From a virus (taxonomy: Duplodnaviria; Heunggongvirae; Uroviricota; Caudoviricetes), in the IMG/VR virus record IMGVR_UViG_3300029581_000002: 64,000 nt of DNA; one strand, given 5' to 3'. The first letter of the stretch is position 1. Each line of letters begins with the position of its first letter. The translations under genes and the position numbers were made by a program. The notes under the pieces are model-generated. The model was not told the origin of the DNA and did no database searches. It worked only from the letters and a program-made list of their open reading frames with translations. Below, piece after piece: positions 5,602-61,757 of the stretch.

Positions 5602-6221
5602 AGTTCCGTCATAGTATCAAACACTAATTCTTCATATGTTCCATCTTTAAACTTCTCGATGCCTTCCCAAGCCTTAGACATTATAAAGTCAGCAATATTG
5701 ACGTTTATCAGATTACATTTGTTCTGTTTAGCCCAATTGACTAACTCTATCACTCTTTTATGATTCTCAAGTTTCCACCCTATATTCTTGCCATATCTAA
5801 AGAACATATCTTCCAAAGTGTTAAACTTCTTAGACCAGTTCTTTAAACTATACTCCCTACCATTAATAATGACAATATCTGGGTATGCTTCCCAGAACTC
5901 TCCTCCCAGGTCTCCGGAATATTTTCTATAATTCTTAATGAAGTTTTCATTAAAGATTACAGATTCAGGGTCAAACGTCTGACCCTCTGCGGGAATTTTA
6001 TACTTCTTAGTAATGACTCCCTTCACCTGTAGACTTAATAATACGTCTCTAAGGCGGGTTTTAGTTATTGGCATTCCCAGATATCGGATGAGGGAGTCTT
6101 TATGTCCCTCTTCTGGTTGTGCCAAGAATAGCAACTCAATCATTAACAACTCCTCAGCAGTAAGCCTATACTGCTCCATTATTAACAACTGATTCTCTAT
6201 TGTTAAACTTAATTTCTCCAA
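5598..6221 (-). CDS. hypothetical protein (possible helicase-associated/loader)
   Basis: 207-aa ORF translationally coupled immediately upstream of the helicase. Confidence 0.4.
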   Translation of the reverse strand: MEKLSLTIENQLLIMEQYRLTAEELLMIELLFLAQPEEGHKDSLIRYLGMPITKTRLRDVLLSLQVKGVITKKYKIPAEGQTFDPESVIFNENFIKNYRKYSGDLGGEFWEAYPDIVIINGREYSLKNWSKKFNTLEDMFFRYGKNIGWKLENHKRVIELVNWAKQNKCNLINVNIADFIMSKAWEGIEKFKDGTYEELVFDTMTEL

Positions 6222-12905: not shown

Positions 12906-13378
12906 AATTTCTCTTTCTCTACTCTAAATTGACAACATAGTTTCTGCAACTCGAGTATGACGGGTTCTAAGGTACTAACACCCTTAACCAACACTGCTCG
13001 TTGGTCTACCGTCCTTCTAGCTAAATGAGATTGGACGCTGGAAACAGCATCTTCATATCTCTTCTTAATAAGGTCTCTATTCTCGAAATACTTGGGAATT
13101 TTACCATGCAGATATATTAAAGCATCTAATGCCTTAATAAGTTCCTTATGGCTCATAGAAGTAGATATTCTGTCATAAATAAATACATATCTATCAACTC
13201 CGTCTGGAATGATATTTATATATTTATCAGTTTCAGTTCCTTCTCTTCCTACATGGTCTGCTAACCTCACAGTAGCAGAGAATCCGTTCAATGTGTAGTA
13301 CTCCGAATCTCCCTTATAATTAGTAGAAGTAAATCCCTTCCTCTTCAGCCATGCTTTTAGTTTGCTCAACCCTCTCAT
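12902..13378 (-). CDS. hypothetical protein
   Basis: 158-aa ORF. Confidence 0.4.
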   Translation of the reverse strand: MRGLSKLKAWLKRKGFTSTNYKGDSEYYTLNGFSATVRLADHVGREGTETDKYINIIPDGVDRYVFIYDRISTSMSHKELIKALDALIYLHGKIPKYFENRDLIKKRYEDAVSSVQSHLARRTVDQRAVLVKGVSTLEPVILELQKLCCQFRVEKEKL

Positions 13379-13625
13379 CTTGTTTAATCTTCTTTTCCAC
13401 CTTTCGAAATATCAAGTCTTCGTCAAGTGGACATCTACACTCCATAGTACAGTCACTGGCTTTAAAGTAACAGCCAAAGCACGCGCAACCACTGTCAACG
13501 ATTTCTACCGGACTGCCGTTTACAGTGATAAGGTCTCCTACCTGTAAAATGGGTATTAATTCATTGTCTTCGTACTTAAATTTCTGCATATCTAAAGTTA
13601 AAAAAGAAGGGCCAAACCCAGACAA
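13320..13625 (-). CDS. hypothetical Cys-rich protein
   Basis: 101 aa with a CACFGCYF...C..C.C cluster. Confidence 0.35.
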   Translation of the reverse strand: MSGFGPSFLTLDMQKFKYEDNELIPILQVGDLITVNGSPVEIVDSGCACFGCYFKASDCTMECRCPLDEDLIFRKVEKKIKQDERVEQTKSMAEEEGIYFY

Positions 13626-13837
13626 TCACTAGAGTAGACCTTACCTCATTAGAAGTAAAGAATAATCTAATAACTAATCTGAATTTGACCCTAAACGGCA
13701 GTACGAATATCGTTCTGCGCGATTAGCACTACATTAAATATAACGTAGCCTAAAGTCCGTTATCATAGATGATAACAATAATACCAAGGATTGGCATTAG
13801 GTGTGTTGCTAGGAGCAACGAAGAAGAGCCTACATCC

Positions 13838-13846
13838 CCCCCCCAG
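13838..13846. repeat. C9 homopolymer (G9 on the transcribed minus strand) in the intergenic/promoter region
   Basis: Direct count of 9 consecutive C in an AT-rich background. It lies upstream of the minus-strand gene starting at 13625. Confidence 0.9.
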
Positions 13847-13897
13847 TGATATTCTGGCTGGAATGTCTATTCCATAACCTATCACCATACATAAGAA

Positions 13898-14266
13898 CTA
13901 TTCAAAGTAGTCTGGGAACTTATCTTTTAATATTTCAGATATGTCCACGCCAGTCAGTTCAGCCATAGATAATTCTTCCAACATTGCGTCTTCAGAATCG
14001 TCCACACTACCGTCAGCGCTATCAATAAGATTGAGCAGTAATTGAGCTTTCTCATCAGTCAGCCCGTCTTGCGCCCATTTACTTACTACTTCTGCAAAGA
14101 ATTCATCGAACTCATAAGAAGTTTGCTCGTCTTCATCAGCGATTGCATTCTTCTTGGCAAACAGTTCTTTGATGTCTTCATCTGTAATAGTTCCGGCTTT
14201 ATCATAAGCCGCGTTCAATGACTCTATAAGAGAGTCTTGTTCATCGAATGTCATTGTTGTTAACAA
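13898..14266 (-). CDS. highly acidic small protein (possible DNA-mimic/anti-restriction type)
   Basis: 122 aa that is extremely rich in D/E. Confidence 0.4.
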   Translation of the reverse strand: MLTTMTFDEQDSLIESLNAAYDKAGTITDEDIKELFAKKNAIADEDEQTSYEFDEFFAEVVSKWAQDGLTDEKAQLLLNLIDSADGSVDDSEDAMLEELSMAELTGVDISEILKDKFPDYFE

Positions 14267-14743: not shown

Positions 14744-14763
14744 AATAACTAATAATTGGTTTG

Positions 14764-14837
14764 TGACTCAGGTGGGGCTCTAACCCACAACCCTCTCCTT
14801 AGGACGGAGATGCTCTATACTATTGAGCTACTGAGCC
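14764..14837 (-). tRNA. tRNA-Arg(CCT)
   Basis: Manual cloverleaf: acceptor GGCTCAG/CTGAGTC, D arm GCTC..GAGC, anticodon stem TCTCC/GGAGA with loop GTCCTAA (U33, A37). The T loop is atypical (TTAGAGC). Confidence 0.6.
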
Positions 14838-20631: not shown

Positions 20632-21105
20632 TTATCCTATTTCGTTACTAGCATTATAAGCAAGCTTGTCGGCTTCCTTATTATGTTCATCACTTGCGTG
20701 ACCTTTACACCACTCAACAGACACTACTTTATGCCTGTTCACAGCCTTATCAAGACGTTCCCACAAATCAGTATTGGCTTTCCTCTTCCACCCTTTAGTA
20801 AGAGTTCCTACAATATACATAGAATCTGTTACTATTGTAATTTCAGAAGGTTCCTTTATGGATTCCAGGGCAACTATGACAGCCATTTGCTCCATTCGCT
20901 GATTGGTGCTGTTCTTATACATCTTACTGTATTGGAATATCTTCTTGTCATCCTCTAAAATGACAAAGCCTATTCCCCCTTGATTTCTCGCAGGAGAATA
21001 GGCACCATCACAGTATATTCTGTACTTATGCGTCGGCATTAGGATTCTCAACAAAATCCTCATCATCCTCATCTTCTTCGGTTTCGGATATGACATCTTC
21101 ATCAA
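20632..21105 (-). CDS. rnhA: ribonuclease H
   Basis: YCDGAYS, GGIGFVI, EQMAVIVALE, IVTDSMYIV, WCKGHA and NKEADKLA give an RNase HI DEDD pattern. The likely true start is the internal MPTHK Met near 21039. Confidence 0.65.
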   Translation of the reverse strand: MMKMSYPKPKKMRMMRILLRILMPTHKYRIYCDGAYSPARNQGGIGFVILEDDKKIFQYSKMYKNSTNQRMEQMAVIVALESIKEPSEITIVTDSMYIVGTLTKGWKRKANTDLWERLDKAVNRHKVVSVEWCKGHASDEHNKEADKLAYNASNEIG

Positions 21106-21556
21106 TAAGATGCTTAACCCACATACCTAAGATAAAGATGACATAGAATTTGTCTTCCTCCTGTTTGTAGTTAACCTTGTCAGAGACTTCATTAACTACA
21201 TCTAACATTGTGAACTCCTCTTTAGCCATAGCATCGTCAGCTATAGCAGACATTTCTTCTACATAAGGTCTAGCCTTCTGCATCGCTTCGTCAAAACTCT
21301 TTACTAAGGCTATGCCTTCATCACCTCTAATTTGCATAGCAACAGATAGAGGTTGTTGCAATTCATTTCTAAAGAAGCCCAAATAGAAAGCCTTCTCTAC
21401 ATCTCCGTTTACGAAGTCATTGAAAGATTTAGCTTTCATTACTTCCTCCACTTTGAAATCAATTTCTGATACGTCTCTGATTTTATCCATAATGTTATGA
21501 TAGCAACCCACCAATCTTCTCGGCCATGGCTGTTGCTTTGTTAGAAACTGCTTCAA
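21026..21556 (-). CDS. hypothetical protein with acidic C-terminus
   Basis: 176-aa ORF ending ..ETEEDEDDEDFVENPNADA. Confidence 0.4.
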   Translation of the reverse strand: MKQFLTKQQPWPRRLVGCYHNIMDKIRDVSEIDFKVEEVMKAKSFNDFVNGDVEKAFYLGFFRNELQQPLSVAMQIRGDEGIALVKSFDEAMQKARPYVEEMSAIADDAMAKEEFTMLDVVNEVSDKVNYKQEEDKFYVIFILGMWVKHLIDEDVISETEEDEDDEDFVENPNADA

Positions 21557-29078: not shown

Positions 29079-30146
29079 CTAAACTAACTTATCGAATATC
29101 ATGGGCTGTATCGACATCCATAAATTTGCTAGCATTTCTCGCTCTGCGTCAGATGCTTCATCCCAATGTGATACGTACAATTTCTCCGTTCGTTCATTCC
29201 TATAAGGAACCTTAAATGAACGGTTAATGCGTACACTGTGTGCGAATAGGTCTTTGTCGAAATCAATAGCCCTAAGCGTCTTCTGGAAATCGTTGAACTT
29301 ATTATTAGGGTCATCGACATCCCTAACAGACATTCCAGAAGGAAACGGGCCGTTACCATGCCTTGTTATATAAGGACGAGTTACATAACAAGTTTGGATT
29401 TCTTTACGTATACCTGCTTTCCGCAACAGCTCGTAAGCGTTTTGTGAAGTTGTATTAGACGGAGTACAATAAGGCATTATGCCGAATCTTTGGTCAAGCA
29501 ATATTCCCTGTGAACCTTCAAACACTAGGTTATCATAATTCAACAAGCAATCTTCATTAACCGTACCTGTATGTAAGAAATAAGCATGTGCTAACCTACA
29601 CCAGTTGTCTAGGTCTATCGAAGGATATTTACTAGACATGTTGTAATAGTTATCCACTATGGCATTTAGTTTCTCACGCAGTATGTAAGGATTCATACAA
29701 TCTACAACTGTTAAGCTGTATCCTGCCTTAACCCGGTCCAAACAAGCTTTAAACCCTGTACCTACAGTACCATGTCGTAAGTTCTCTTCGTTATTAACTT
29801 GGGAATAGACATCGAAGGGAATTACAACTTGGCAGTGAGGGTGATACTGAACAATGGGATGAACTCCCATTTTAGCTAAGTCTGCACCCTCCAACATAGA
29901 GGTAATTGGGTCTACAGTACAGTATTCGGACCAGTACGTCGGCACTCCAAGTAAGGTTCCGCTGCCAAAGTTACTAAAGGTGTGCATCATGTCTCCATGC
30001 TTTACAGTATGTCCTACTTGATGTCCACCACTAAACCTGACTACTAACACAGACTCTCGCTTACCTATGTACTTGTTACATAAGTTGTGAACTGTCTGTC
30101 CCTTACCTTCGTCTCCAAAGAATGTTCCTAATACAATACTAATCAT
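29079..30146 (-). CDS. adenylosuccinate synthetase family protein (PurA/PurZ-like, short form)
   Basis: VLGTFFGDEGKGQ (PurA P-loop GDEGKGK), FSGGHQVGHT (YQGGHNAGHT) and FEGSQGILLD...MPYCTPSNTT (FEGAQGTLLD...YPYVTSSNTT). At 355 aa it is about 75 aa shorter than cellular PurA, as phage PurZ enzymes are. Confidence 0.65.
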   Translation of the reverse strand: MISIVLGTFFGDEGKGQTVHNLCNKYIGKRESVLVVRFSGGHQVGHTVKHGDMMHTFSNFGSGTLLGVPTYWSEYCTVDPITSMLEGADLAKMGVHPIVQYHPHCQVVIPFDVYSQVNNEENLRHGTVGTGFKACLDRVKAGYSLTVVDCMNPYILREKLNAIVDNYYNMSSKYPSIDLDNWCRLAHAYFLHTGTVNEDCLLNYDNLVFEGSQGILLDQRFGIMPYCTPSNTTSQNAYELLRKAGIRKEIQTCYVTRPYITRHGNGPFPSGMSVRDVDDPNNKFNDFQKTLRAIDFDKDLFAHSVRINRSFKVPYRNERTEKLYVSHWDEASDAEREMLANLWMSIQPMIFDKLV

Positions 30147-33325: not shown

Positions 33326-33354
33326 AAGCTGTAATTATTAATTCATTACTAATG

Positions 33355-33427
33355 CACTGGATAGGGGATTCGAACCCCTGTTTACGCATCGAAAGTGCGT
33401 CGACCTAAACCACTAGTCGAATCCAGT
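33355..33427 (-). tRNA. tRNA-Glu(TTC)
   Basis: Acceptor ACTGGAT/ATCCAGT, D arm GACT..GGTC, anticodon stem ACGCA/TGCGT with loop CTTTCGA, T arm AGGGG TTCGAAT CCCCT. Confidence 0.65.
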
Positions 33428-33435
33428 ATACCTTA

Positions 33436-33723
33436 TTAAGCTTTCCAGAATACAAACTTATTGCCTTCTGGACATCTTACATACTTCACATCAAAACCAT
33501 TCTCTCGATATAGAGGTTCTACATCTAACCAATGGTTCTTAATTACTTCTTCTTCGGTTAAACCTTCAGATGCTACATAGGCTATTACATCTGATTGCTT
33601 AAATTCAGAAGCTTTACCACTCCAGTTCTTAACTATTAAAGTATTAAAAGCTAAGATAACTGCATCAGGAATAGATTTTAAATCTATACTCCTCAATTCT
33701 CTTGAATTTAATACCTTCACCAT
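33436..33723 (-). CDS. hypothetical protein
   Basis: 95-aa ORF. Confidence 0.35.
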   Translation of the reverse strand: MVKVLNSRELRSIDLKSIPDAVILAFNTLIVKNWSGKASEFKQSDVIAYVASEGLTEEEVIKNHWLDVEPLYRENGFDVKYVRCPEGNKFVFWKA

Positions 33724-47129: not shown

Positions 47130-47157
47130 AAAATTGATATTTAAACGTTAATAATAG

Positions 47158-47676
47158 TGGACCTAGGCGGAGTCGAACCGCCGTCCAAACAACCCTCATT
47201 AATAAGATTACGTGTGTCTCTATTTTATTACATCAGCTGTTGAGTTCAGCATGTAGGTAGTTTTACTAAGAAGCCGAGTGTTAATTCACCAATTACGTCT
47301 CCCTCGTAGGGCTACGACTTAGTTGTTCACAAACTACCAAACTGGGCTTGACCGAACGGTCGCTCCACCACTCCATTTACGTTGGAGAACGTTTCTATTT
47401 GTAACCCATAGATAGGTAGTGGAGATTTCAGCTTTACTAACCTTTGGCTTTCAAGTTAAGTGGGCTGCCCTATATGCTTCTTCCCACACCTCTTCTGTTT
47501 CTAGGTCTCTCCAATTAACCCGACTTAGAGCTAAATTAATAGATAAGCCAGCAGCTTAGGCTGCCATTCTTACTTCAGTGTTTCCACTTAAATTGCTGTA
47601 TCATTATTAAAGAGTTGGTACGAACTCTACACGTCTTACTAACTTGTAATCGCCTGTCAAAACCAAATCTAGGCCC
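47158..47676 (-). ncRNA. tmRNA-like RNA (SsrA-like)
   Basis: Minus-strand 5' end GGGCCUAGAUUUGGUUUUGACAGG resembles the tmRNA 5' consensus GGGGCUGAUUCUGGAUUCGACGGG. The 3' end GGCGG TTCGACT CCGCC TAGGTCC A gives a T arm plus acceptor pairing with the 5' end. A short tag-like frame ..GGA AAC ACT GAA GTA AGA ATG GCA GCC TAA (GNTEVRMAA*) ends near nt 120. There is no ORF over 519 nt. Confidence 0.4.
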
Positions 47677-55734: not shown

Positions 55735-55971
55735 ATGACAGGAGAAGAAATTATAGTAACATTTAAAGAGCCTTGGTATAATGATTATACCAGACGATTA
55801 TACACTCAATTATCTGAACAAATGATTAGAGAAGAGATTGAGAGAGTGCATAAAGAACCAATCATTACTAATACTGCATTTGATATAGCAGTAGACAAGG
55901 CTTTCTTAGAGTTACTGCATGACAACAAGGATTTAATTAATATCACAGAACGATACAAGAACCATGAGTAA
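55735..55971 (+). CDS. hypothetical protein
   Basis: The ORF track starts at a TTG (55702). The first ATG is at 55735 (MTGEEIIV..). Confidence 0.35.
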   Translation: MTGEEIIVTFKEPWYNDYTRRLYTQLSEQMIREEIERVHKEPIITNTAFDIAVDKAFLELLHDNKDLINITERYKNHE

Positions 55972-56026
55972 AATAGCAACAGAATTAGAAGCTAAGACTA
56001 TGGGGGGGGACTCTCTCGGTAATTGA
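55964..56026 (+). CDS. leader ORF MSKIATELEAKTMGGDSLGN ending just after the G8 tract; in -1 register to the downstream ORF
   Basis: Manual translation. Deleting one G from G8 (56002..56009) fuses it in frame to the ORF that is open from 55989 to 56609. Confidence 0.4.
   Translation: MSKIATELEAKTMGGDSLGN
56002..56009 (+). repeat. G8 homopolymer at the leader/main-ORF junction
   Basis: Direct count of eight G. Confidence 0.9.
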
Positions 56027-56177
56027 TAATAAGTGCTGTACTAAAGCTAGAGCACTTGAATTAGGATGTCAGATTAAAAGTGGATTTAGTTATACTGATA
56101 ATCAGTTAGTAGAGTTAGAAGGTATAGAGGCAGCTATAACTGCTCCAAATGTAATCCTTCATTATGGTTGGCAGGAT

Positions 56178-56609
56178 ATGCCAATTAATAATATACAGCA
56201 ATTTAGAGTACGTTTCTCATTTGTTAATGAGAGTTCAGTGAATGGAGAGCCGTTTAAGTATTCTGACAATACTATGTACTTTACAATTACTCCAAGATTA
56301 GAGCAAGGAGAACGAACGTACACTAAGACTTTAGCAAATCCTCTTAAATATTACTTAGAGAAATTAGCACCTTCTAACCAAGACCCATATAATACACCTG
56401 TTTGGATACGTTTTGAGGGATACATGATGCTTAAGCAAGTGTCTCAAATTACATTAGCAGTAGATTCTCAATCTGAGAATTGGGCAGAAGGAGTAACATT
56501 TCCTTCATCTGGAAAGTGGGTCAAAATGAATAATTCTGGTAGAGTACTTAGATTTACTGGTGGGGAAACAGACCTAAACATAGAACTGTATACAGCATCA
56601 GCGCAATGA
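56178..56609 (+). CDS. hypothetical protein; frame open upstream to 55989 with no ATG, likely the main body of a G-tract-controlled gene
   Basis: 143 aa from the first ATG. The upstream in-frame 63 codons carry no start codon. Confidence 0.45.
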   Translation: MPINNIQQFRVRFSFVNESSVNGEPFKYSDNTMYFTITPRLEQGERTYTKTLANPLKYYLEKLAPSNQDPYNTPVWIRFEGYMMLKQVSQITLAVDSQSENWAEGVTFPSSGKWVKMNNSGRVLRFTGGETDLNIELYTASAQ

Positions 56610-56803
56610 TTAAAGTAACTGATAATAAAGAAGTAAAGGAAACAGTCCTAGCAGGACTTAAAAGGAATAAAGAGAAGTATGGTAAGAAGTATTGTCCATG
56701 CTCTTTAGTAAGAGATGAAGATACAGTATGTATGTGTAAAGAGTTTAGGGAAATGGAAGAAGGGACTTGCCATTGCCAACTTTATGTTAAAACTAAAGAC
56801 TAA
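56606..56803 (+). CDS. ferredoxin-thioredoxin-reductase catalytic-subunit-like Cys-rich protein
   Basis: YCPC(x11)CMC(x11)CHC mirrors the CPC...CHC arrangement of the FtrC/FTR catalytic chain. Confidence 0.4.
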   Translation: MIKVTDNKEVKETVLAGLKRNKEKYGKKYCPCSLVRDEDTVCMCKEFREMEEGTCHCQLYVKTKD

Positions 56804-56808
56804 TAATT

Positions 56809-56979
56809 ATGGATGAATTAAAGAACCAATTAGCACAGTATTTATGTAGCCAAATTCATAATGGCACTAAGGATTTGATTGAATTAATTGAATCAGAAGA
56901 CCTTATTAATGAACAGTGGTATAAGAACTGGAAGGAAGAGATGAGAATCTTACTACAGGAGAAGTAATTATGATAATAC
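56809..56979 (+). CDS. small hypothetical protein (56 aa)
   Basis: Manual ORF MDELKNQLAQYLCSQIHNGTKDLIELIESEDLINEQWYKNWKEEMRILLQEK. Confidence 0.3.
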
Positions 56980-57209
56980 TTAGTGGAAATTGTCCTAGGC
57001 ATCATAATGCCATTATGTTGGAACTTACAGACTTTGATGACAGTAAAATTTCCTATCTAGCTAGAATATCTAGAGGACATCATGTTGATACTCTGTTAGT
57101 TCCTAGGGAATATAAAGATACATTTGAATCTACAGAACTATATAAAGTATTACTGCCTAATATTAGTATAGGTGATGTACAATTTGCTAAAATATACTAT
57201 TATGATTGA
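56970..57209 (+). CDS. hypothetical protein
   Basis: 79-aa ORF. Confidence 0.35.
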   Translation: MIILSGNCPRHHNAIMLELTDFDDSKISYLARISRGHHVDTLLVPREYKDTFESTELYKVLLPNISIGDVQFAKIYYYD

Positions 57210-57432
57210 CGTTAGAAAGACATTAGAGAATTTACATCAGATACTTCCAAACTTATCAATAGAGGACTTATTTAGAGTTCTTGATAACATAGTAGAGATT
57301 CCACAATTTAACGTAGGACAGACAACTACTATACGTAGAGATAATAGTGGCTGGAGACCATATGACACAGGTACATTTATATCTTATGCTAGTAATGGAA
57401 TAACACTTAGTGATGAAGGAACTTGTAAATAA
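57172..57432 (+). CDS. hypothetical protein
   Basis: 86-aa ORF. Confidence 0.35.
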   Translation: MMYNLLKYTIMIDVRKTLENLHQILPNLSIEDLFRVLDNIVEIPQFNVGQTTTIRRDNSGWRPYDTGTFISYASNGITLSDEGTCK

Positions 57433-57619
57433 CTGGAATGAGAAACATCCCGAATACGTATTGGTACACGGGATGTATTCTTATGTAGACAATGGACAAT
57501 CTAAGGATATGCACATGCTTACTATCTTTAATAAGGATAATGAATGTGTATGTGAATATAAAGGAGAAGATTTTATTAAATTATATAATACATTAGAAGA
57601 AGAATGGGAAAGCGATTAA
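57410..57619 (+). CDS. hypothetical protein
   Basis: 69-aa ORF. Confidence 0.35.
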   Translation: MMKELVNNWNEKHPEYVLVHGMYSYVDNGQSKDMHMLTIFNKDNECVCEYKGEDFIKLYNTLEEEWESD

Positions 57620-58284
57620 TTAATGTTGATGAAGTGGAGGAGATAGTACCTGTCCTAGTAGGCAAATTACTAGAGAACAATTTGATAACGGAGGAACAAG
57701 CGGACCAAATCATCTGTGCAATCTTTAATGATAACGATAGGCTAAATGAAATTAGGGAATTAAATCCAGATTATGATATTAGTATGCATAAGCTGAATGT
57801 TTGCGTGGGAGATAGTCAGTATAGACTAGTGTATTGTATATATGTAGAGCATAAAGAATCTGGGATAAGTGTGTATAGGGACAAGGACTTCGATGTACAG
57901 GAAGTGATAAACAGACTTCCATCTAAATTCACAATAGAGAAAGAACAAGAGTTGCTTCCTAAAGGAGTAAATATAAAGATTCATAAATACTCTATTAACT
58001 GTGCAGTAAGTCTATTTAGCAACGCTGCTGACTACTTTAAAGACCATACAGTAAATATAACTATTAGTTATCCATTAAAGAATCCGTATACATTCACTGC
58101 TAAATGCCGCAATTTGAATGATTTAATAAATGAAATAACCCTTGCATATAGAAGGATTTACGAAGAAGAGAAGGAGAATCCAGGTAAGTATGGAATATGG
58201 GGACATCATATAGAAGATTTATGGCTTGAGAAAGCTACTCTCGATATAGAGACTGGTAATGTTAAAATACTTGTAGGTAGTTAA
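57604..58284 (+). CDS. hypothetical protein
   Basis: 226-aa ORF. Confidence 0.45.
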   Translation: MGKRLINVDEVEEIVPVLVGKLLENNLITEEQADQIICAIFNDNDRLNEIRELNPDYDISMHKLNVCVGDSQYRLVYCIYVEHKESGISVYRDKDFDVQEVINRLPSKFTIEKEQELLPKGVNIKIHKYSINCAVSLFSNAADYFKDHTVNITISYPLKNPYTFTAKCRNLNDLINEITLAYRRIYEEEKENPGKYGIWGHHIEDLWLEKATLDIETGNVKILVGS

Positions 58285-58285
58285 T

Positions 58286-58567
58286 ATGGATAATAAATTA
58301 AATGTACAGAAACTAGGATATGAAGTAGGAGAACCTATGTGGGTTCATTGGGACGATAGATACGTATGGCGTGGAGGACATATACTAGGAAAATGCCCAG
58401 ATGAGAATTTGATAACCACAGTGGGCTACTTGGCATATATGGATGATAAATCAATAATATTGGGAAGAGGTATTGAGAATCATTGTGATGAGGACGGTAC
58501 TCGCAGAGTAAAAGATACAATACACATACCAATGAGCTTAGTAGCTAGTTTTGGAAGTTTTGATTGA
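58286..58567 (+). CDS. hypothetical protein
   Basis: 93-aa ORF. Confidence 0.4.
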   Translation: MDNKLNVQKLGYEVGEPMWVHWDDRYVWRGGHILGKCPDENLITTVGYLAYMDDKSIILGRGIENHCDEDGTRRVKDTIHIPMSLVASFGSFD

Positions 58568-58573
58568 TGAACT

Positions 58574-59428
58574 ATGATAAATGAGGAGTATAATAAATGG
58601 CTAATCCTTTACTTTGATATGCAATCTATAAATTTACAGTTCAATTGTAATGATATAGCATCATCACTAAAGGCACAAAGAGATAAGATAAAACAATTCT
58701 GTATTGACTGTCTAACAGGAGTAAAATATCAGGCTGACAGCTTTCTATTTGACACAAATGCCTGCATATTCTCTACTCCCGAAACTAGAGAGCTATTGTT
58801 CTCGCATGAAGAATATCTCATTCTTGAGGCTGATACTACTAAAGTAGTTGACGGAAAGTATCCCTTAGACTACGCTAACGAAATAGTAGAATCTAATTTG
58901 GACACTATTATTGACTATATAGTACAATCAGGAACAGAAACATACAATGATAGAACCAGTAGAGGATTTGGGAATAGGTGGAGTCCTTATAATGAGGAGG
59001 AACGTAAACAAGTAATTAAACTGTTTAACTCTGGAACTTGGTATGATACACTTGGGTCCTTAAAGCATTTATATTATGAAAGAACCCCCAAAGGCTTAAG
59101 AATGTGTAACCTGACTGGCGAACCCTTACAAGCCAATGTTCTAGAACATATAGAAGATATTATTTTGAACATAAAAGACCATTATGAAACATTTGCCGTT
59201 GTTCCTAGAGGTAAATCTAAATTACAAGTTTATATGACAATTAGCAATGGAACAAATGGGGCTGAAGGATGTATTATTAATTCTATGGAAGATGTTCTAA
59301 ATGTGCTTAAAAACTTAAGGAAATATAAAGGAGTAAATTGGTCACAGCTACTAGAAGTTGGGACAGATAATGCAGATGATTTATATTGGTGGTACGTGAC
59401 ATTCTCTATAGACACTACGGCTGTGTAA
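58574..59428 (+). CDS. hypothetical protein
   Basis: 284-aa ORF. Confidence 0.45.
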   Translation: MINEEYNKWLILYFDMQSINLQFNCNDIASSLKAQRDKIKQFCIDCLTGVKYQADSFLFDTNACIFSTPETRELLFSHEEYLILEADTTKVVDGKYPLDYANEIVESNLDTIIDYIVQSGTETYNDRTSRGFGNRWSPYNEEERKQVIKLFNSGTWYDTLGSLKHLYYERTPKGLRMCNLTGEPLQANVLEHIEDIILNIKDHYETFAVVPRGKSKLQVYMTISNGTNGAEGCIINSMEDVLNVLKNLRKYKGVNWSQLLEVGTDNADDLYWWYVTFSIDTTAV

Positions 59429-59443
59429 TAAATTAATATAAAT

Positions 59444-59704
59444 ATGAGCAAATGGAATGACTGGGCAATTACTACTAAATTCCCACCTATAAAGCCAGGT
59501 TACGGTATGAATTGTAGAACGGATTATAAAATAGATGTAGTATTTAAAGTACGTACAGGTAAGGGATATTGGAGAGGAAGTAAGTATCTTTATGTATGCA
59601 ATAATAACACTATTTACTTGTTAGGTTCAGATGCAGGAATACATCACGTAACAGAAGAGTTACCTAGTAACCTTGAAGCTAAAGTCCGTGAGTATAAACC
59701 TTAA
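59444..59704 (+). CDS. hypothetical protein
   Basis: 86-aa ORF starting MSKW. Confidence 0.4.
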   Translation: MSKWNDWAITTKFPPIKPGYGMNCRTDYKIDVVFKVRTGKGYWRGSKYLYVCNNNTIYLLGSDAGIHHVTEELPSNLEAKVREYKP

Positions 59705-59724
59705 ATGAATTAATATGAATTAAT

Positions 59725-60093
59725 ATGAATTGTAAATTAAAACGTAAAGACTTAGTACTTATTAAATGGAATAGCAAGTACATGACTGATAGAGAAGGAT
59801 GCAGTCTATCAGAAGATGTTAAATATTTAAATAGAGATATAGAAACAAGTACAGTAGGTTACTTCATAGAAGAAGATGATAAAGCTATTGTACTTGCTTC
59901 AAGTATTTATGGTATTAATATACCTGATTCATTATGTAAGGATTGTATGGTAATTCCTAAAGCCTATATAAAAGATATAACTTCGATTGGCACAGAGCTT
60001 GTTGCTCAGCTCTTATATTTCTTACAACAACGTAATTACATTACAGAAGAGCAAATGAATGATGCATGTAATGAGATTCTAAAATCAAATTAA
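59725..60093 (+). CDS. hypothetical protein
   Basis: 122-aa ORF. Its start codon sits inside a triple tandem atgaattaat / atgaattaat / atgaattgta repeat. Confidence 0.4.
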   Translation: MNCKLKRKDLVLIKWNSKYMTDREGCSLSEDVKYLNRDIETSTVGYFIEEDDKAIVLASSIYGINIPDSLCKDCMVIPKAYIKDITSIGTELVAQLLYFLQQRNYITEEQMNDACNEILKSN

Positions 60094-60094
60094 T

Positions 60095-60340
60095 ATGACT
60101 AATGAACAATTAAATCAATACTATAGTAAAGATGCAGATAAGAAACAGTGTTGGGTAAGTAAAGACCATAACTGCCCATTAAAGGAACAATGCAATGGAC
60201 TTGTTAAGCCAGAATGTAAAGAGCATATAGACAATGAAGACGCCTGCCATGCTATTGATAAGATGATAGAATGGTATTACCAAGTAAAAGAACCTGAATT
60301 TCTAAAGTTCTATAATTGTCACTTAGAGATGATTAAGTAA
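60095..60340 (+). CDS. hypothetical Cys-rich protein
   Basis: 81-aa ORF with a C..C....C....C..H.C pattern. Confidence 0.35.
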   Translation: MTNEQLNQYYSKDADKKQCWVSKDHNCPLKEQCNGLVKPECKEHIDNEDACHAIDKMIEWYYQVKEPEFLKFYNCHLEMIK

Positions 60341-60625
60341 CTTTACATACTAAATAAAAGAAGCAACCCGTTTTACATCTGGGTTGCCAGTGGATGCTAG
60401 GCACAAAGCCTAAGATAGTTTTTACGTCTTCGTCTTGGTGGTCTACACCAGTGCGCTCTGACGTATTCCCACTTACCGAGACGGAATCTCCAGTAAGCAT
60501 GGACAAAGACGGTCTTTGCTATCTCCATAATTAACACCTCCTTTCTATGATTTAATTCAATCTCGGAAGTTGAGGTGCAATTATGGTGATGCAAATATAG
60601 TAATTAAATTAATATAACAATAAAT

Positions 60626-60727
60626 ATGAGTAAAATAGTAACACAAGACAAACTGAATGAATTAACAGGTAAGAATATAGATTATGGGAAGGGGGGGGTA
60701 TTGTCCTCATTACCAAACCATAGTTAG
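60626..60727 (+). CDS. leader ORF MSKIVTQDKLNELTGKNIDYGKGG.. running through the G8 tract, out of frame with the main ORF
   Basis: Manual translation. One G fewer fuses it to the 60684 ORF after ..YGKGG. Confidence 0.4.
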   Translation: MSKIVTQDKLNELTGKNIDYGKGGVLSSLPNHS

Positions 60728-61697
60728 TCTCTGGGGTAGCGTAGTTGCGTCTAGTAACTACCAGCCAAATCAATTAGTTAAAGAAGAAGATATAGTTGTA
60801 GACAAAGACCTATTCCTTATTAATGCGGAGACAGGTAGTTTATACTTTGCTGGCGGTGGTACCTATGCTCAAATTCCAGCTATAGACGGCCATGAGGATT
60901 TTATGTACATAGCTGGAGGAGGTGAAGCAATTGGAGCATTGTCTATGCTTGGAGGATTGTATGTAGTTAATCAGTCTACCAAACAGTGGGAATTAAAATA
61001 CAAAGATACTGTAAGAGCTTATGGTTATGCTCACTTGGCTAGATTCTCTACTGGCTGGATATTTTATAAGGGAGCAGGAGGAGACGGTAAGAACTATGTT
61101 ATTATAGTATATGATAATGGCACGACAAAGGAGTTAAGCGTCGTAAGTAATGTCCACAGCATATCAACTGGGCCTTATAATTACTGCTGCGTTGGAGTAC
61201 TATATCAGGGAGGGGCTAGGATATATACCTTCTTAGCTACGTCTGCGCCAGATTCTCTTACTTATTATACTCCGGGAATGTTTACACCAAATGCAGTAAT
61301 ACAGGGGGATTATGCTTCACCAAGAGGTATAGTATATAGCACTACTAGTAATTACACATACTTTAGTGCTAATCCAACTGGAACTCAATGGACTGCTGCA
61401 ACCACTAGACCACAACTAACTGCTTTGACTAAAGGTTTGTATGCAAATGCCGAGTTTATGCTTATAGGAGGTAACATGAAGAGCGTGTCTACAGACGGAG
61501 GTCAGAATTGGACTACCTCTACACTAGGCGCATACACTCTTACTGATTTAATATATGTAGATTCAAATTGGTATGCAATTGGTTCGAATGGAACTAAAAG
61601 ACTCCTATTGCAGAATACAGCTTCTACATTTGACCAAAGTAATAAAATACTTGACTTGCCTGACTATTCTAGACAAGTAATTAAGATTAACGTATAA
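60684..61697 (+). CDS. G/T/S/Y/N-rich beta-type protein, candidate tail fibre/receptor-binding protein
   Basis: 337 aa with the composition and GGG/TT/SS runs typical of fibre proteins. The ATG at 60684 is in frame only in the G8 state. The gene is followed by a bidirectional terminator. Confidence 0.45.
   Translation: MGRGGYCPHYQTIVSLWGSVVASSNYQPNQLVKEEDIVVDKDLFLINAETGSLYFAGGGTYAQIPAIDGHEDFMYIAGGGEAIGALSMLGGLYVVNQSTKQWELKYKDTVRAYGYAHLARFSTGWIFYKGAGGDGKNYVIIVYDNGTTKELSVVSNVHSISTGPYNYCCVGVLYQGGARIYTFLATSAPDSLTYYTPGMFTPNAVIQGDYASPRGIVYSTTSNYTYFSANPTGTQWTAATTRPQLTALTKGLYANAEFMLIGGNMKSVSTDGGQNWTTSTLGAYTLTDLIYVDSNWYAIGSNGTKRLLLQNTASTFDQSNKILDLPDYSRQVIKINV
60691..60698 (+). repeat. G8 homopolymer inside the start region of the fibre-like gene
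   Basis: Direct count of eight G. Confidence 0.9.
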
Positions 61698-61713
61698 TAA
61701 GTTAATATAATAA

Positions 61714-61757
61714 AAGCCCGAACTTAGTTTAATTACTAGGCTCGGGCTTGTTTTATT
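61714..61757. terminator. bidirectional rho-independent terminator between convergent genes
   Basis: aagcccga ... tcgggctt stem followed by gttttatt. The reverse strand also has a T-rich tail. Confidence 0.65.

Follow-up and report, generated by a model that had tools for sequence, protein, structure and literature searches.

What a run of nine C is doing in a non-coding gap of a phage genome that otherwise holds almost no homopolymers is the question raised by a locus of the phage recorded in IMG/VR as IMGVR_UViG_3300029581_000002. The analysed DNA is a 64 kb stretch (64,000 nucleotides, hereafter the window) of this uncultured human-gut phage; the phage is about 180 kb in size with a guanine-cytosine (GC) content of 37.5%, and contigs of its relatives, drawn from IMG/VR and human-gut metagenomes, reach about 187 kb. 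The C9 run occupies 13836-13844 of the plus strand. On the minus strand, the sense strand for every gene between about 278 and 54900, it is G9. A first-pass annotation of this DNA had recognised the run but placed it at 13838-13846, so that its coordinates had to be moved 2 nt to the left. Helix coordinates given below are those of the minus-strand element in window numbering. It is proposed here, with about an even chance of being right, that G9 is a hypermutable tract kept in a new structured RNA as one strand of a G:C/U helix, and that slippage varies this helix in a heritable and graded way.

The nine-C run is not a chance feature. The window contains three G/C runs of at least 8 nt against 0.24 in first-order Markov simulations, and one of at least 9 nt against 0.06; the count of poly-G/C runs against a chance model, which had been suggested in the first-pass annotation, therefore gives three long runs, far above the simulated expectation. 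The other two are G8 tracts at 56002-56009 and 60691-60698, also seen earlier, which lie on the sense (plus) strand of their genes in a rightward gene block. There are no G/C runs of 6-7 nt and no A/T runs of at least 7 nt in the window, and shorter runs are scarce as well (T5, 14 observed against 111 expected; A5, 10 against 72 expected). When the 53 open reading frames (ORFs) were shuffled among synonymous codons, a procedure that preserves all 53 protein sequences and the codon pool, 170 ± 9 runs of at least 5 nt and 50 ± 6 of at least 6 nt were obtained, against 21 and 2 observed, a depletion of about eight-fold. Homopolymers are purged genome-wide, far more than codon usage accounts for. 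In about 1 Mb of the relatives' loci, G/C runs of at least 7 nt occur solely at these three loci, and no A/T run of at least 7 nt was found. A low density of simple sequence repeats (SSRs) has precedent in T7-like coliphages, with 0.02-0.07 SSRs per kb (bioRxiv 10.1101/2025.10.21.683753). The three retained G runs are conspicuous notwithstanding this precedent, because the genome otherwise purges homopolymers. Possible causes of the purge are slippage-prone replication or transcription, or modified bases.

The length of the tract varies among relatives. Among 20 near-identical relatives from IMG/VR, lengths of 6, 7, 8, 9, 10 and 12 nt occur for the G run, which is the multi-allelic indel hot spot of the roughly 12 kb compared among them. 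A wider set of 44 distinct gap sequences was assembled from the IMG/VR relatives, more divergent relatives and a scan of independent human-gut metagenomes. Across this set, pure G runs extend from G5 to G12 with a mode at 8-9, the tract segment has 17 different alleles, interrupted ones included (e.g., AGAGGGGGG and GGGGGAGGGGGG), and a run of at least 5 G is retained in all 44. With nine G, the tract exceeds the roughly 7 nt from which a homopolymer can slip, and its length polymorphism lies well above that of its flanks, as in homopolymer contingency loci. The earlier suggestion of a set of such loci agrees with these alleles, and with the G7-G10 alleles and in-frame fusions found at the two G8 tracts (described below).

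That the differences are homopolymer errors of short-read assembly around an invariant tract is highly improbable, given that the spread from G5 to G12 far exceeds the usual consensus error of ±1, that the same length alleles recur in independent samples, and that substitutions flanking the tract (T to A or G, internal A or T) track the haplotypes. In addition, the shorter homopolymers of these 12 kb do not show comparable multi-allelic indels. What speaks for such errors is the known proneness of long G runs to them and the fact that two long contigs end at or beside the tract, where they show a chimeric junction or local errors; these contig ends fit heterogeneity or sequencing difficulty at that position, and they may hint at frequent, reversible switching inside one population.

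The tract lies between two minus-strand genes. The upstream gene (13898-14254) encodes a 118-amino-acid acidic protein and ends in a TAG at 13898-13900, and the downstream gene (13320-13589) encodes an 89-amino-acid Cys-rich protein. The latter had been given a TTG start at 13625; it most probably starts instead at the ATG at 13589-13587, which is conserved and is the called start in all relatives, and the TTG falls within a conserved helix (H9, below). With the start at 13589, the gap therefore comprises 13590-13897, a total of 308 nt from the upstream TAG to the downstream ATG. Homologues of the 89-amino-acid protein are 56-98% identical, and the RNA element in the gap is better conserved. 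Searches of Pfam, PHROGs and PDB sequences with the two flanking proteins returned no informative match.

Minus-strand RNA from 13592 to 13897 has a predicted folding energy of -111 kcal/mol, compared with -73 ± 4.7 kcal/mol for shuffled sequences (z = -8.07), and the plus-strand RNA of the gap reaches -63.9 kcal/mol (z = -2.7). In a scan of both strands of the 64 kb, this is the most stable 300-nt fold after correction for GC content, outranking the transfer RNA (tRNA) clusters and the transfer-messenger RNA (tmRNA). An alignment of 40 distinct sequences supports nine local helices with 101 pairs, in which 100.0% of 4036 cells are paired; compensatory double changes occur at 6 pairs, and one-sided changes that pass through G.U at about 20. 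When the 3' partners were slid by 1-3 columns as a control, 33-49% of cells were paired and 0-1 compensatory pairs remained. In the most divergent clade (L068, L069 and L071), the element is 86-87% identical compared with 72-81% for the flanking genes. The fold is stable and strand-specific, with pair-preserving and compensatory changes, and by these generic marks the gap holds a conserved structured RNA. Its strand-specific conserved structure points to transcription, with the RNA presumably made as a discrete molecule or as a leader.

The same stability could be thought to serve single-stranded DNA (ssDNA), such as a replication origin or packaging signal, since the minus strand is also unusually stable when folded with DNA parameters (-41.7 kcal/mol, z = -5.3; the second DNA value is z = -3.7). 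This is considered very unlikely. The sense-strand RNA fold is the strongest signal (z = -8.1 against -5.3 and -3.7), many of the conserved pairs are G.U and all one-sided changes go through G.U, and the helix that contains the G run does not form under DNA parameters. Furthermore, the element shares the orientation of the operon, and its end is formed by a hairpin with a U-tract behind it.

Read 5' to 3', the element begins with H1 and H2 (13846-13885), a nested hairpin located 5' of the G tract that is 100% paired and carries one compensatory change (A-U to G-C) and one change of A-U to G.U. The G9 tract itself (13836-13844) forms the predicted 5' strand of H3, followed by the loop AUGUAGG (13835-13829) and, 7 nt downstream of the G run, by a C/U tract, CUCUUCUUC (13820-13828), as the predicted 3' strand that pairs through G-C and G.U. 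H4 (13805-13819) is the hairpin GTTGC-TAGGA-GCAAC noted in the first-pass annotation and is present as described there, with two compensatory pairs (U-A to C-G and C-G to U-A) and loop variants UCCUA, UUUUA and AUU. In H5 (UAAUGCC...GGCAUUA; 13779-13799) the stem is kept and the loop is hypervariable in sequence and length among near-identical genomes, and in H6 (GUUAUCA-loop-UGAUAAC; 13758-13777) a U-A pair is U.G in 21 of the 40 sequences and the variable loop has 4-5 nt. The 13 pairs of H7 (13723-13753) are 100% paired, three one-sided changes leaving the pairing intact, and H8 (GCAG-ACGA-UAU-UCGU-CUGC; 13696-13721) has three compensatory pairs. The element closes with H9 (13608-13692), a long terminal hairpin that hardly varies among the sequences and has 36 pairs, many of them G.U. 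Directly 3' of it lies the U-tract UCUUUUUU (13600-13607), which resembles a terminator tail, stands 10 nt before the downstream ATG and includes one of the only two A6 runs of the window. The layout of a stem base AGGGUC...GGCCCU followed by UCUUUUUU resembles that of an intrinsic terminator, and H9 with its U-tract may be a site where transcription terminates. Among near-identical genomes, substitutions and indels cluster in the loops of H2, H4, H5 and H6, and the stems of these helices and the 3' half (H7-H9) are almost invariant. This loop diversification (13758-13885) may itself be selected.

Pair-preserving substitutions occur on both sides of the tract, in H1/H2 on the 5' side and in H4-H9 on the 3' side. 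As helices covary on both sides, the tract is internal to the presumably transcribed structure: a hypervariable tract sits inside a structure that is conserved and strand-specific.

No known RNA family was recognised in the element. Rfam (Rfam 15), run on the whole window at the gathering threshold, gave no family in 13450-14050 (the models covered include those of tRNA, tmRNA, T-box, riboswitches, GOLLD, ROOL and RAGATH), and relaxing the search to E values of up to 10 gave nothing meaningful in the same interval; ARAGORN found no tRNA or tmRNA in the gap, and a BLAST of the gap against the window found no paralogues. When IMG/VR was scanned for exact copies of a conserved 21-mer from H9, only the same phage lineage was retrieved. 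Stable RNAs among or next to phage tRNA genes are known, such as the species 1 and 2 RNAs of T4, GOLLD and ROOL. The present element resembles these as a structured non-coding RNA co-oriented within a tRNA-rich phage region. It differs from them in that it is much smaller, holds a hypermutable homopolymer, and matches neither GOLLD nor ROOL nor other Rfam models.

Position in a non-coding gap upstream of a gene, together with a variable length, would also suit a switch in which the tract lies in the spacer or upstream part of the promoter of the downstream gene and sets its strength. Phase variation by a promoter-spacer homopolymer is established for porA and opc of Neisseria and fim of Bordetella, where a variable poly-G/C tract likewise lies in non-coding DNA upstream of a gene, and the first-pass annotation had described the gap as promoter-like, with a spacing that length changes of the tract could alter. 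This description is not borne out. No sigma-70-like hexamer pair spans the tract, and a sigma-70-type scan of the gap gave 7 promoter-like sites against 6.3 in shuffled sequences, with the proviso that the promoter type of the host may differ and that consensus scans are incomplete. The Bacteroidota -7 motif TAnnTTTG has 65 matches in the window against 68 expected and none in the gap. In contrast to porA, opc and fim, promoter hexamers do not bracket the tract; about 247 nt separate it from the downstream ATG, the gap is filled by conserved RNA structure, and the RNA-type conservation of pairs on the sense strand to either side of the tract implies transcription through it. A promoter-spacer switch is thus regarded as quite unlikely. 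A candidate TAnnTTTG -7 box at the end of the upstream gene was rejected, being one N short of a motif that is not enriched in the window.

Coding explanations of the gap were rejected as well. A 41-amino-acid ORF across the tract (13763-13888) is not conserved, its frame shifts with tract length, and it is truncated in the L068 clade by a 2-nt loop insertion. Read-through of the upstream TAG by a phage tRNA(CUA), which would run through the tract, was discarded because the frame is not conserved. The tRNA with anticodon CUA is an amber suppressor, labelled tRNA-Pyl by ARAGORN, at 40783-40855 (minus strand) in an array of 28 tRNAs. TAG serves as an ordinary stop in 13 of the 95 ORFs of the window, so any recoding of TAG would concern other, probably late, genes.

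The predicted effect of tract length was examined by partition-function folding of the element with 3-14 G in the tract. The number of G:C/U pairs predicted in H3 is about 8.4-8.9 at G9-G12, 6.5 at G8 and 1.8-3.6 at G5-G7, and in short tracts the G run is predicted to pair partly with upstream sequence. As H3 pairing varies with the number of G, the tract can, in these predictions, tune the 5' domain. In the partner C/U tract, one position is changed from U to C in 15 of 40 sequences, which turns a G.U into a G-C pair and keeps the pairing. Formation of H3 within the element is predicted by these models, and tract length may have a functional effect; H3 taken on its own is weakly supported. 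The distal C/U tract at the terminator was also considered as a partner of the G run, and such pairing is not predicted at any length.

The explanation favoured here is a contingency locus at the level of RNA structure. Replication slippage would alter the length of the G run (5 to 12 in nature), and the change would alter the length and register of H3, with the full 9-bp helix predicted at 8-9 G or more and shorter tracts predicted to re-pair with upstream sequence. The outcome would be a heritable, reversible and graded change of fold in the 5' half of the RNA, which may in turn alter the stability or activity of the RNA, or read-through of H9 and its U-tract into the downstream operon.

Several observations weigh against this explanation. 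The predicted folding of H4-H9, the base of the terminator-like last helix included, is the same at every tract length, and for this reason an effect on read-through is not predicted by thermodynamics alone. H3 is without compensatory covariation, which it cannot show because its G strand is invariant by nature. The isolated H3 hairpin is no more stable than shuffled sequences (z = -0.84), isolated H3-type hairpins at all three G tracts are likewise none better than shuffles, and no correlation was seen between the length of the G run and the U/C variant in its partner (p = 0.69). Selection on the stability of H3, which had been entertained, is ruled against by this non-correlation together with the behaviour of the isolated hairpins. 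All six compensatory pairs of the element come from the one divergent clade of three sequences named above, so that the covariation rests on few evolutionary events. A consensus scan for terminators did not flag H9, probably because its stem is long and interrupted. Finally, tract lengths were called from short-read assemblies, in which long G runs are prone to error.

Part of this evidence is shared by an alternative account, in which the RNA needs a G run, either as the H3 strand or as a binding site, and the differences in length are unavoidable slippage with no regulatory effect. The distribution is unimodal around G8-G9, as under stabilising selection combined with slippage; a G:C/U helix can slide in register, which makes changes of length structurally cheap; tract length does not follow the partner-tract variant; and interrupted alleles such as AGAGGGGGG and GGGGGAGGGGGG occur. 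However, the genome removes homopolymers with great efficiency, and a mixed G/A or G/C strand could form the same helix and be free of the instability, yet 44 of 44 sequences keep the run. The other two retained runs are, moreover, clearly loci of the switch type. Tolerated noise is seen as possible but less likely than not.

These two runs lie in surface-protein-like genes whose frames they interrupt, and which are termed here phase-variable genes 2 and 3. Gene 2 (55964-56609, plus strand) begins with the N-terminus MSKIATELEAKTMGG, followed by G8 at 56002-56009 and a 199-codon frame; gene 3 (60626-61697, plus strand) begins with MSKIVTQDKLNELTGKNIDYGK, followed by G8 at 60691-60698 and a 332-codon frame. 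The frame from the ATG at 55964 stops 7 codons past G8 in gene 2, where the 199-codon frame begins at 56010, and in gene 3 the ATG at 60626 opens the first frame and the 332-codon frame begins at 60699. Both genes are out of frame at G8 and at G9, and G7 or G10 would join the frames. The G tracts stand 13 codons (gene 2) and 22 codons (gene 3) into ORFs that open with MSKI, and the genes are taken to be paralogues because they have the N-terminus and an NQLV.E motif in common.

Relatives carry G7-G10 at both coding tracts, plus interrupted alleles. In a large protein collection, most clusters represent an in-frame fusion of 355-358 amino acids (...DYGKGGGYCPHYQ..., G10), forms of 337 amino acids represent out-of-frame alleles, and the G10 in-frame fusion proteins (357 amino acids) are present in many metagenomes. 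The downstream frames are intact in every relative, with a ratio of nonsynonymous to synonymous substitution rates (dN/dS) of 0.15-0.36. The frames, the natural ON and OFF alleles and the intact downstream frames identify genes 2 and 3 as classical 5'-coding poly-G switches. Pfam, PHROG and PDB sequence searches gave no informative match for either gene. An AlphaFold2 model of the fused gene 3 product is a beta-propeller (predicted local distance difference test, 69.6), and its structural matches are generic, some being phage structural, tail-fibre or BNR proteins. A possible receptor-binding role of genes 2 and 3 is suggested by this model. In IMG/VR assemblies G9, an out-of-frame allele, is the commonest at both coding tracts. 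For tRNA-Gly, a run of G makes a perfect slippery site, so that G9 alleles could yield the full-length protein at a low level, either by a -1 ribosomal frameshift or by transcriptional slippage.

The block that contains both poly-G genes (55963-61752) is rearranged by inversion between relatives (L045, L055, L059, L061, L067). Contig 3300045988_052707 carries the gene 3 cassette (about 60619-61752) at its usual place but in reverse orientation, and in contigs 051379 and 037023 gene 3 on the plus strand precedes a gene 2 that is inverted. The latter two arrangements are interconverted through an inversion between the common N-terminal segments with MSKI and poly-G, which recalls the Mu G segment or a shufflon. 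Gene 3 is flanked by a 15-nt inverted repeat, TAGTAATTAAATTAA (60598-60612) and TTAGTTTAATTACTA (61724-61738).

A length-variable G run that acts at the RNA level is known from Helicobacter pylori. In the leader of the tlpB-hp0102 mRNA, a G-repeat of 6-16 G is targeted by the C/U-rich loop of the small RNA (sRNA) RepG, and the length of the repeat grades regulation through this pairing (PMC8295292). The tlpB leader with RepG is the closest functional analogue of the present tract, which likewise is a length-variable G run in a non-coding region (transcribed, judging from its structure) with a predicted C/U-rich RNA partner and with an output that would be graded by tract length, not ON/OFF. 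Unlike that system, the C/U partner is here in cis, 7 nt downstream, inside a large nine-helix element of a phage, and the pairing is a prediction.

This precedent raises a further option, namely that the element is, or is processed into or otherwise yields, an sRNA whose C/U tracts, CUCUUCUUC (13820-13828) and CCCUUCUUUUUU (13600-13611), pair with poly-G in the mRNAs of genes 2 and 3, its own G run being an internal anti-seed whose length would set access to the seed. The phage has just three long G runs, namely this tract and those in genes 2 and 3, the RNA bears two C/U tracts, which are uncommon on the sense strand, and RepG offers a direct model (PMC8295292). The case is one of sequence logic, since pairing will be predicted between whatever G run and C/U run are compared, and the G tracts of genes 2 and 3 are within coding sequence and not in a leader; regulation in trans of this kind is accordingly judged improbable. 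A combined view, in which the element is a phase-variable non-coding RNA of the phage whose folding or activity is tuned, heritably and by degrees, through slippage and which may be coupled through C/U pairing, in the manner of RepG, to the poly-G-switched beta-propeller genes, is offered tentatively and with considerable doubt.

Contingency loci of phages have been recognised only recently and described so far as frameshift switches in coding genes. In Fletchervirus phages of Campylobacter, hypermutable polyG tracts lie in receptor-binding protein genes (Sorensen et al. 2021, Cell Rep 35:109214, as reported in PMC12823448 and bioRxiv 10.1101/2025.10.21.683753). As far as these reports describe them, the Fletchervirus G tracts (7-11 nt) give frameshift ON/OFF variants of genes with a structural or host-recognition type of product and so match genes 2 and 3, in contrast to the tract at 13836-13844, which is non-coding and inside a structured RNA, in a phage that is unrelated. 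In T-even and other phages, homopolymer SSRs of at least 6 nt mutate by polymerase slippage, a few of them being intergenic, and T2 has 168 homopolymer runs across its genome (bioRxiv 10.1101/2025.10.21.683753). Compared with T2, the present phage is almost without such runs and keeps three long G runs; for these loci of T-even and other phages, no context of RNA structure has been described. Poly-G in phages and G-repeats acting on RNA in one bacterium are thus known, and we found no description of poly-G inside a conserved structured phage RNA. If the favoured explanation is true, the idea of contingency would extend to graded regulation at the RNA level in viruses. The element is also a new RNA motif without an Rfam family in a widespread lineage of human-gut phages of about 180 kb, present in dozens of independent metagenomes. 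With three G tracts, two of them in paralogous beta-propeller-like genes rearranged by inversion, the phage offers a system for studying how a gut phage diversifies its host-interaction functions.

Further observations concern the rest of the window. No cultured phage matched 12000-16000 in a megablast search. The leaders of the genes are A/T-rich and carry no Shine-Dalgarno sequences, which suggests a Bacteroidota-like host. The next most stable 300-nt folds of the minus strand are at 20851-21250, 5801-6200, 33351-33700 and 43351-43750 (GC-corrected z of -2.9 to -3.4); the folded segment that starts at 20901 reaches into a 392-nt gap (21103-21494), and these four folds are candidates for additional structured RNAs. 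The window carries 28 tRNA genes, one of them for the suppressor tRNA(CUA), plus a tmRNA (Rfam, 85.7 bits; 47155-47676, minus strand) and a RAGATH-34 RNA (120.9 bits; 45172-45279, minus strand), both in the tRNA region. A tRNA-Arg(CCU) gene at 14763-14837 (minus strand) has no BLAST match at the syntenic position in L068-L073, and the tRNA complement may vary within the lineage. Finally, the ORF at 29079-30146 (minus strand) encodes a 355-amino-acid member of the adenylosuccinate synthetase family that falls short of the length of bacterial PurA by about 75 residues; its best PDB matches are bacterial PurA, and its size and phage context recall PurZ of 2-aminoadenine phages.

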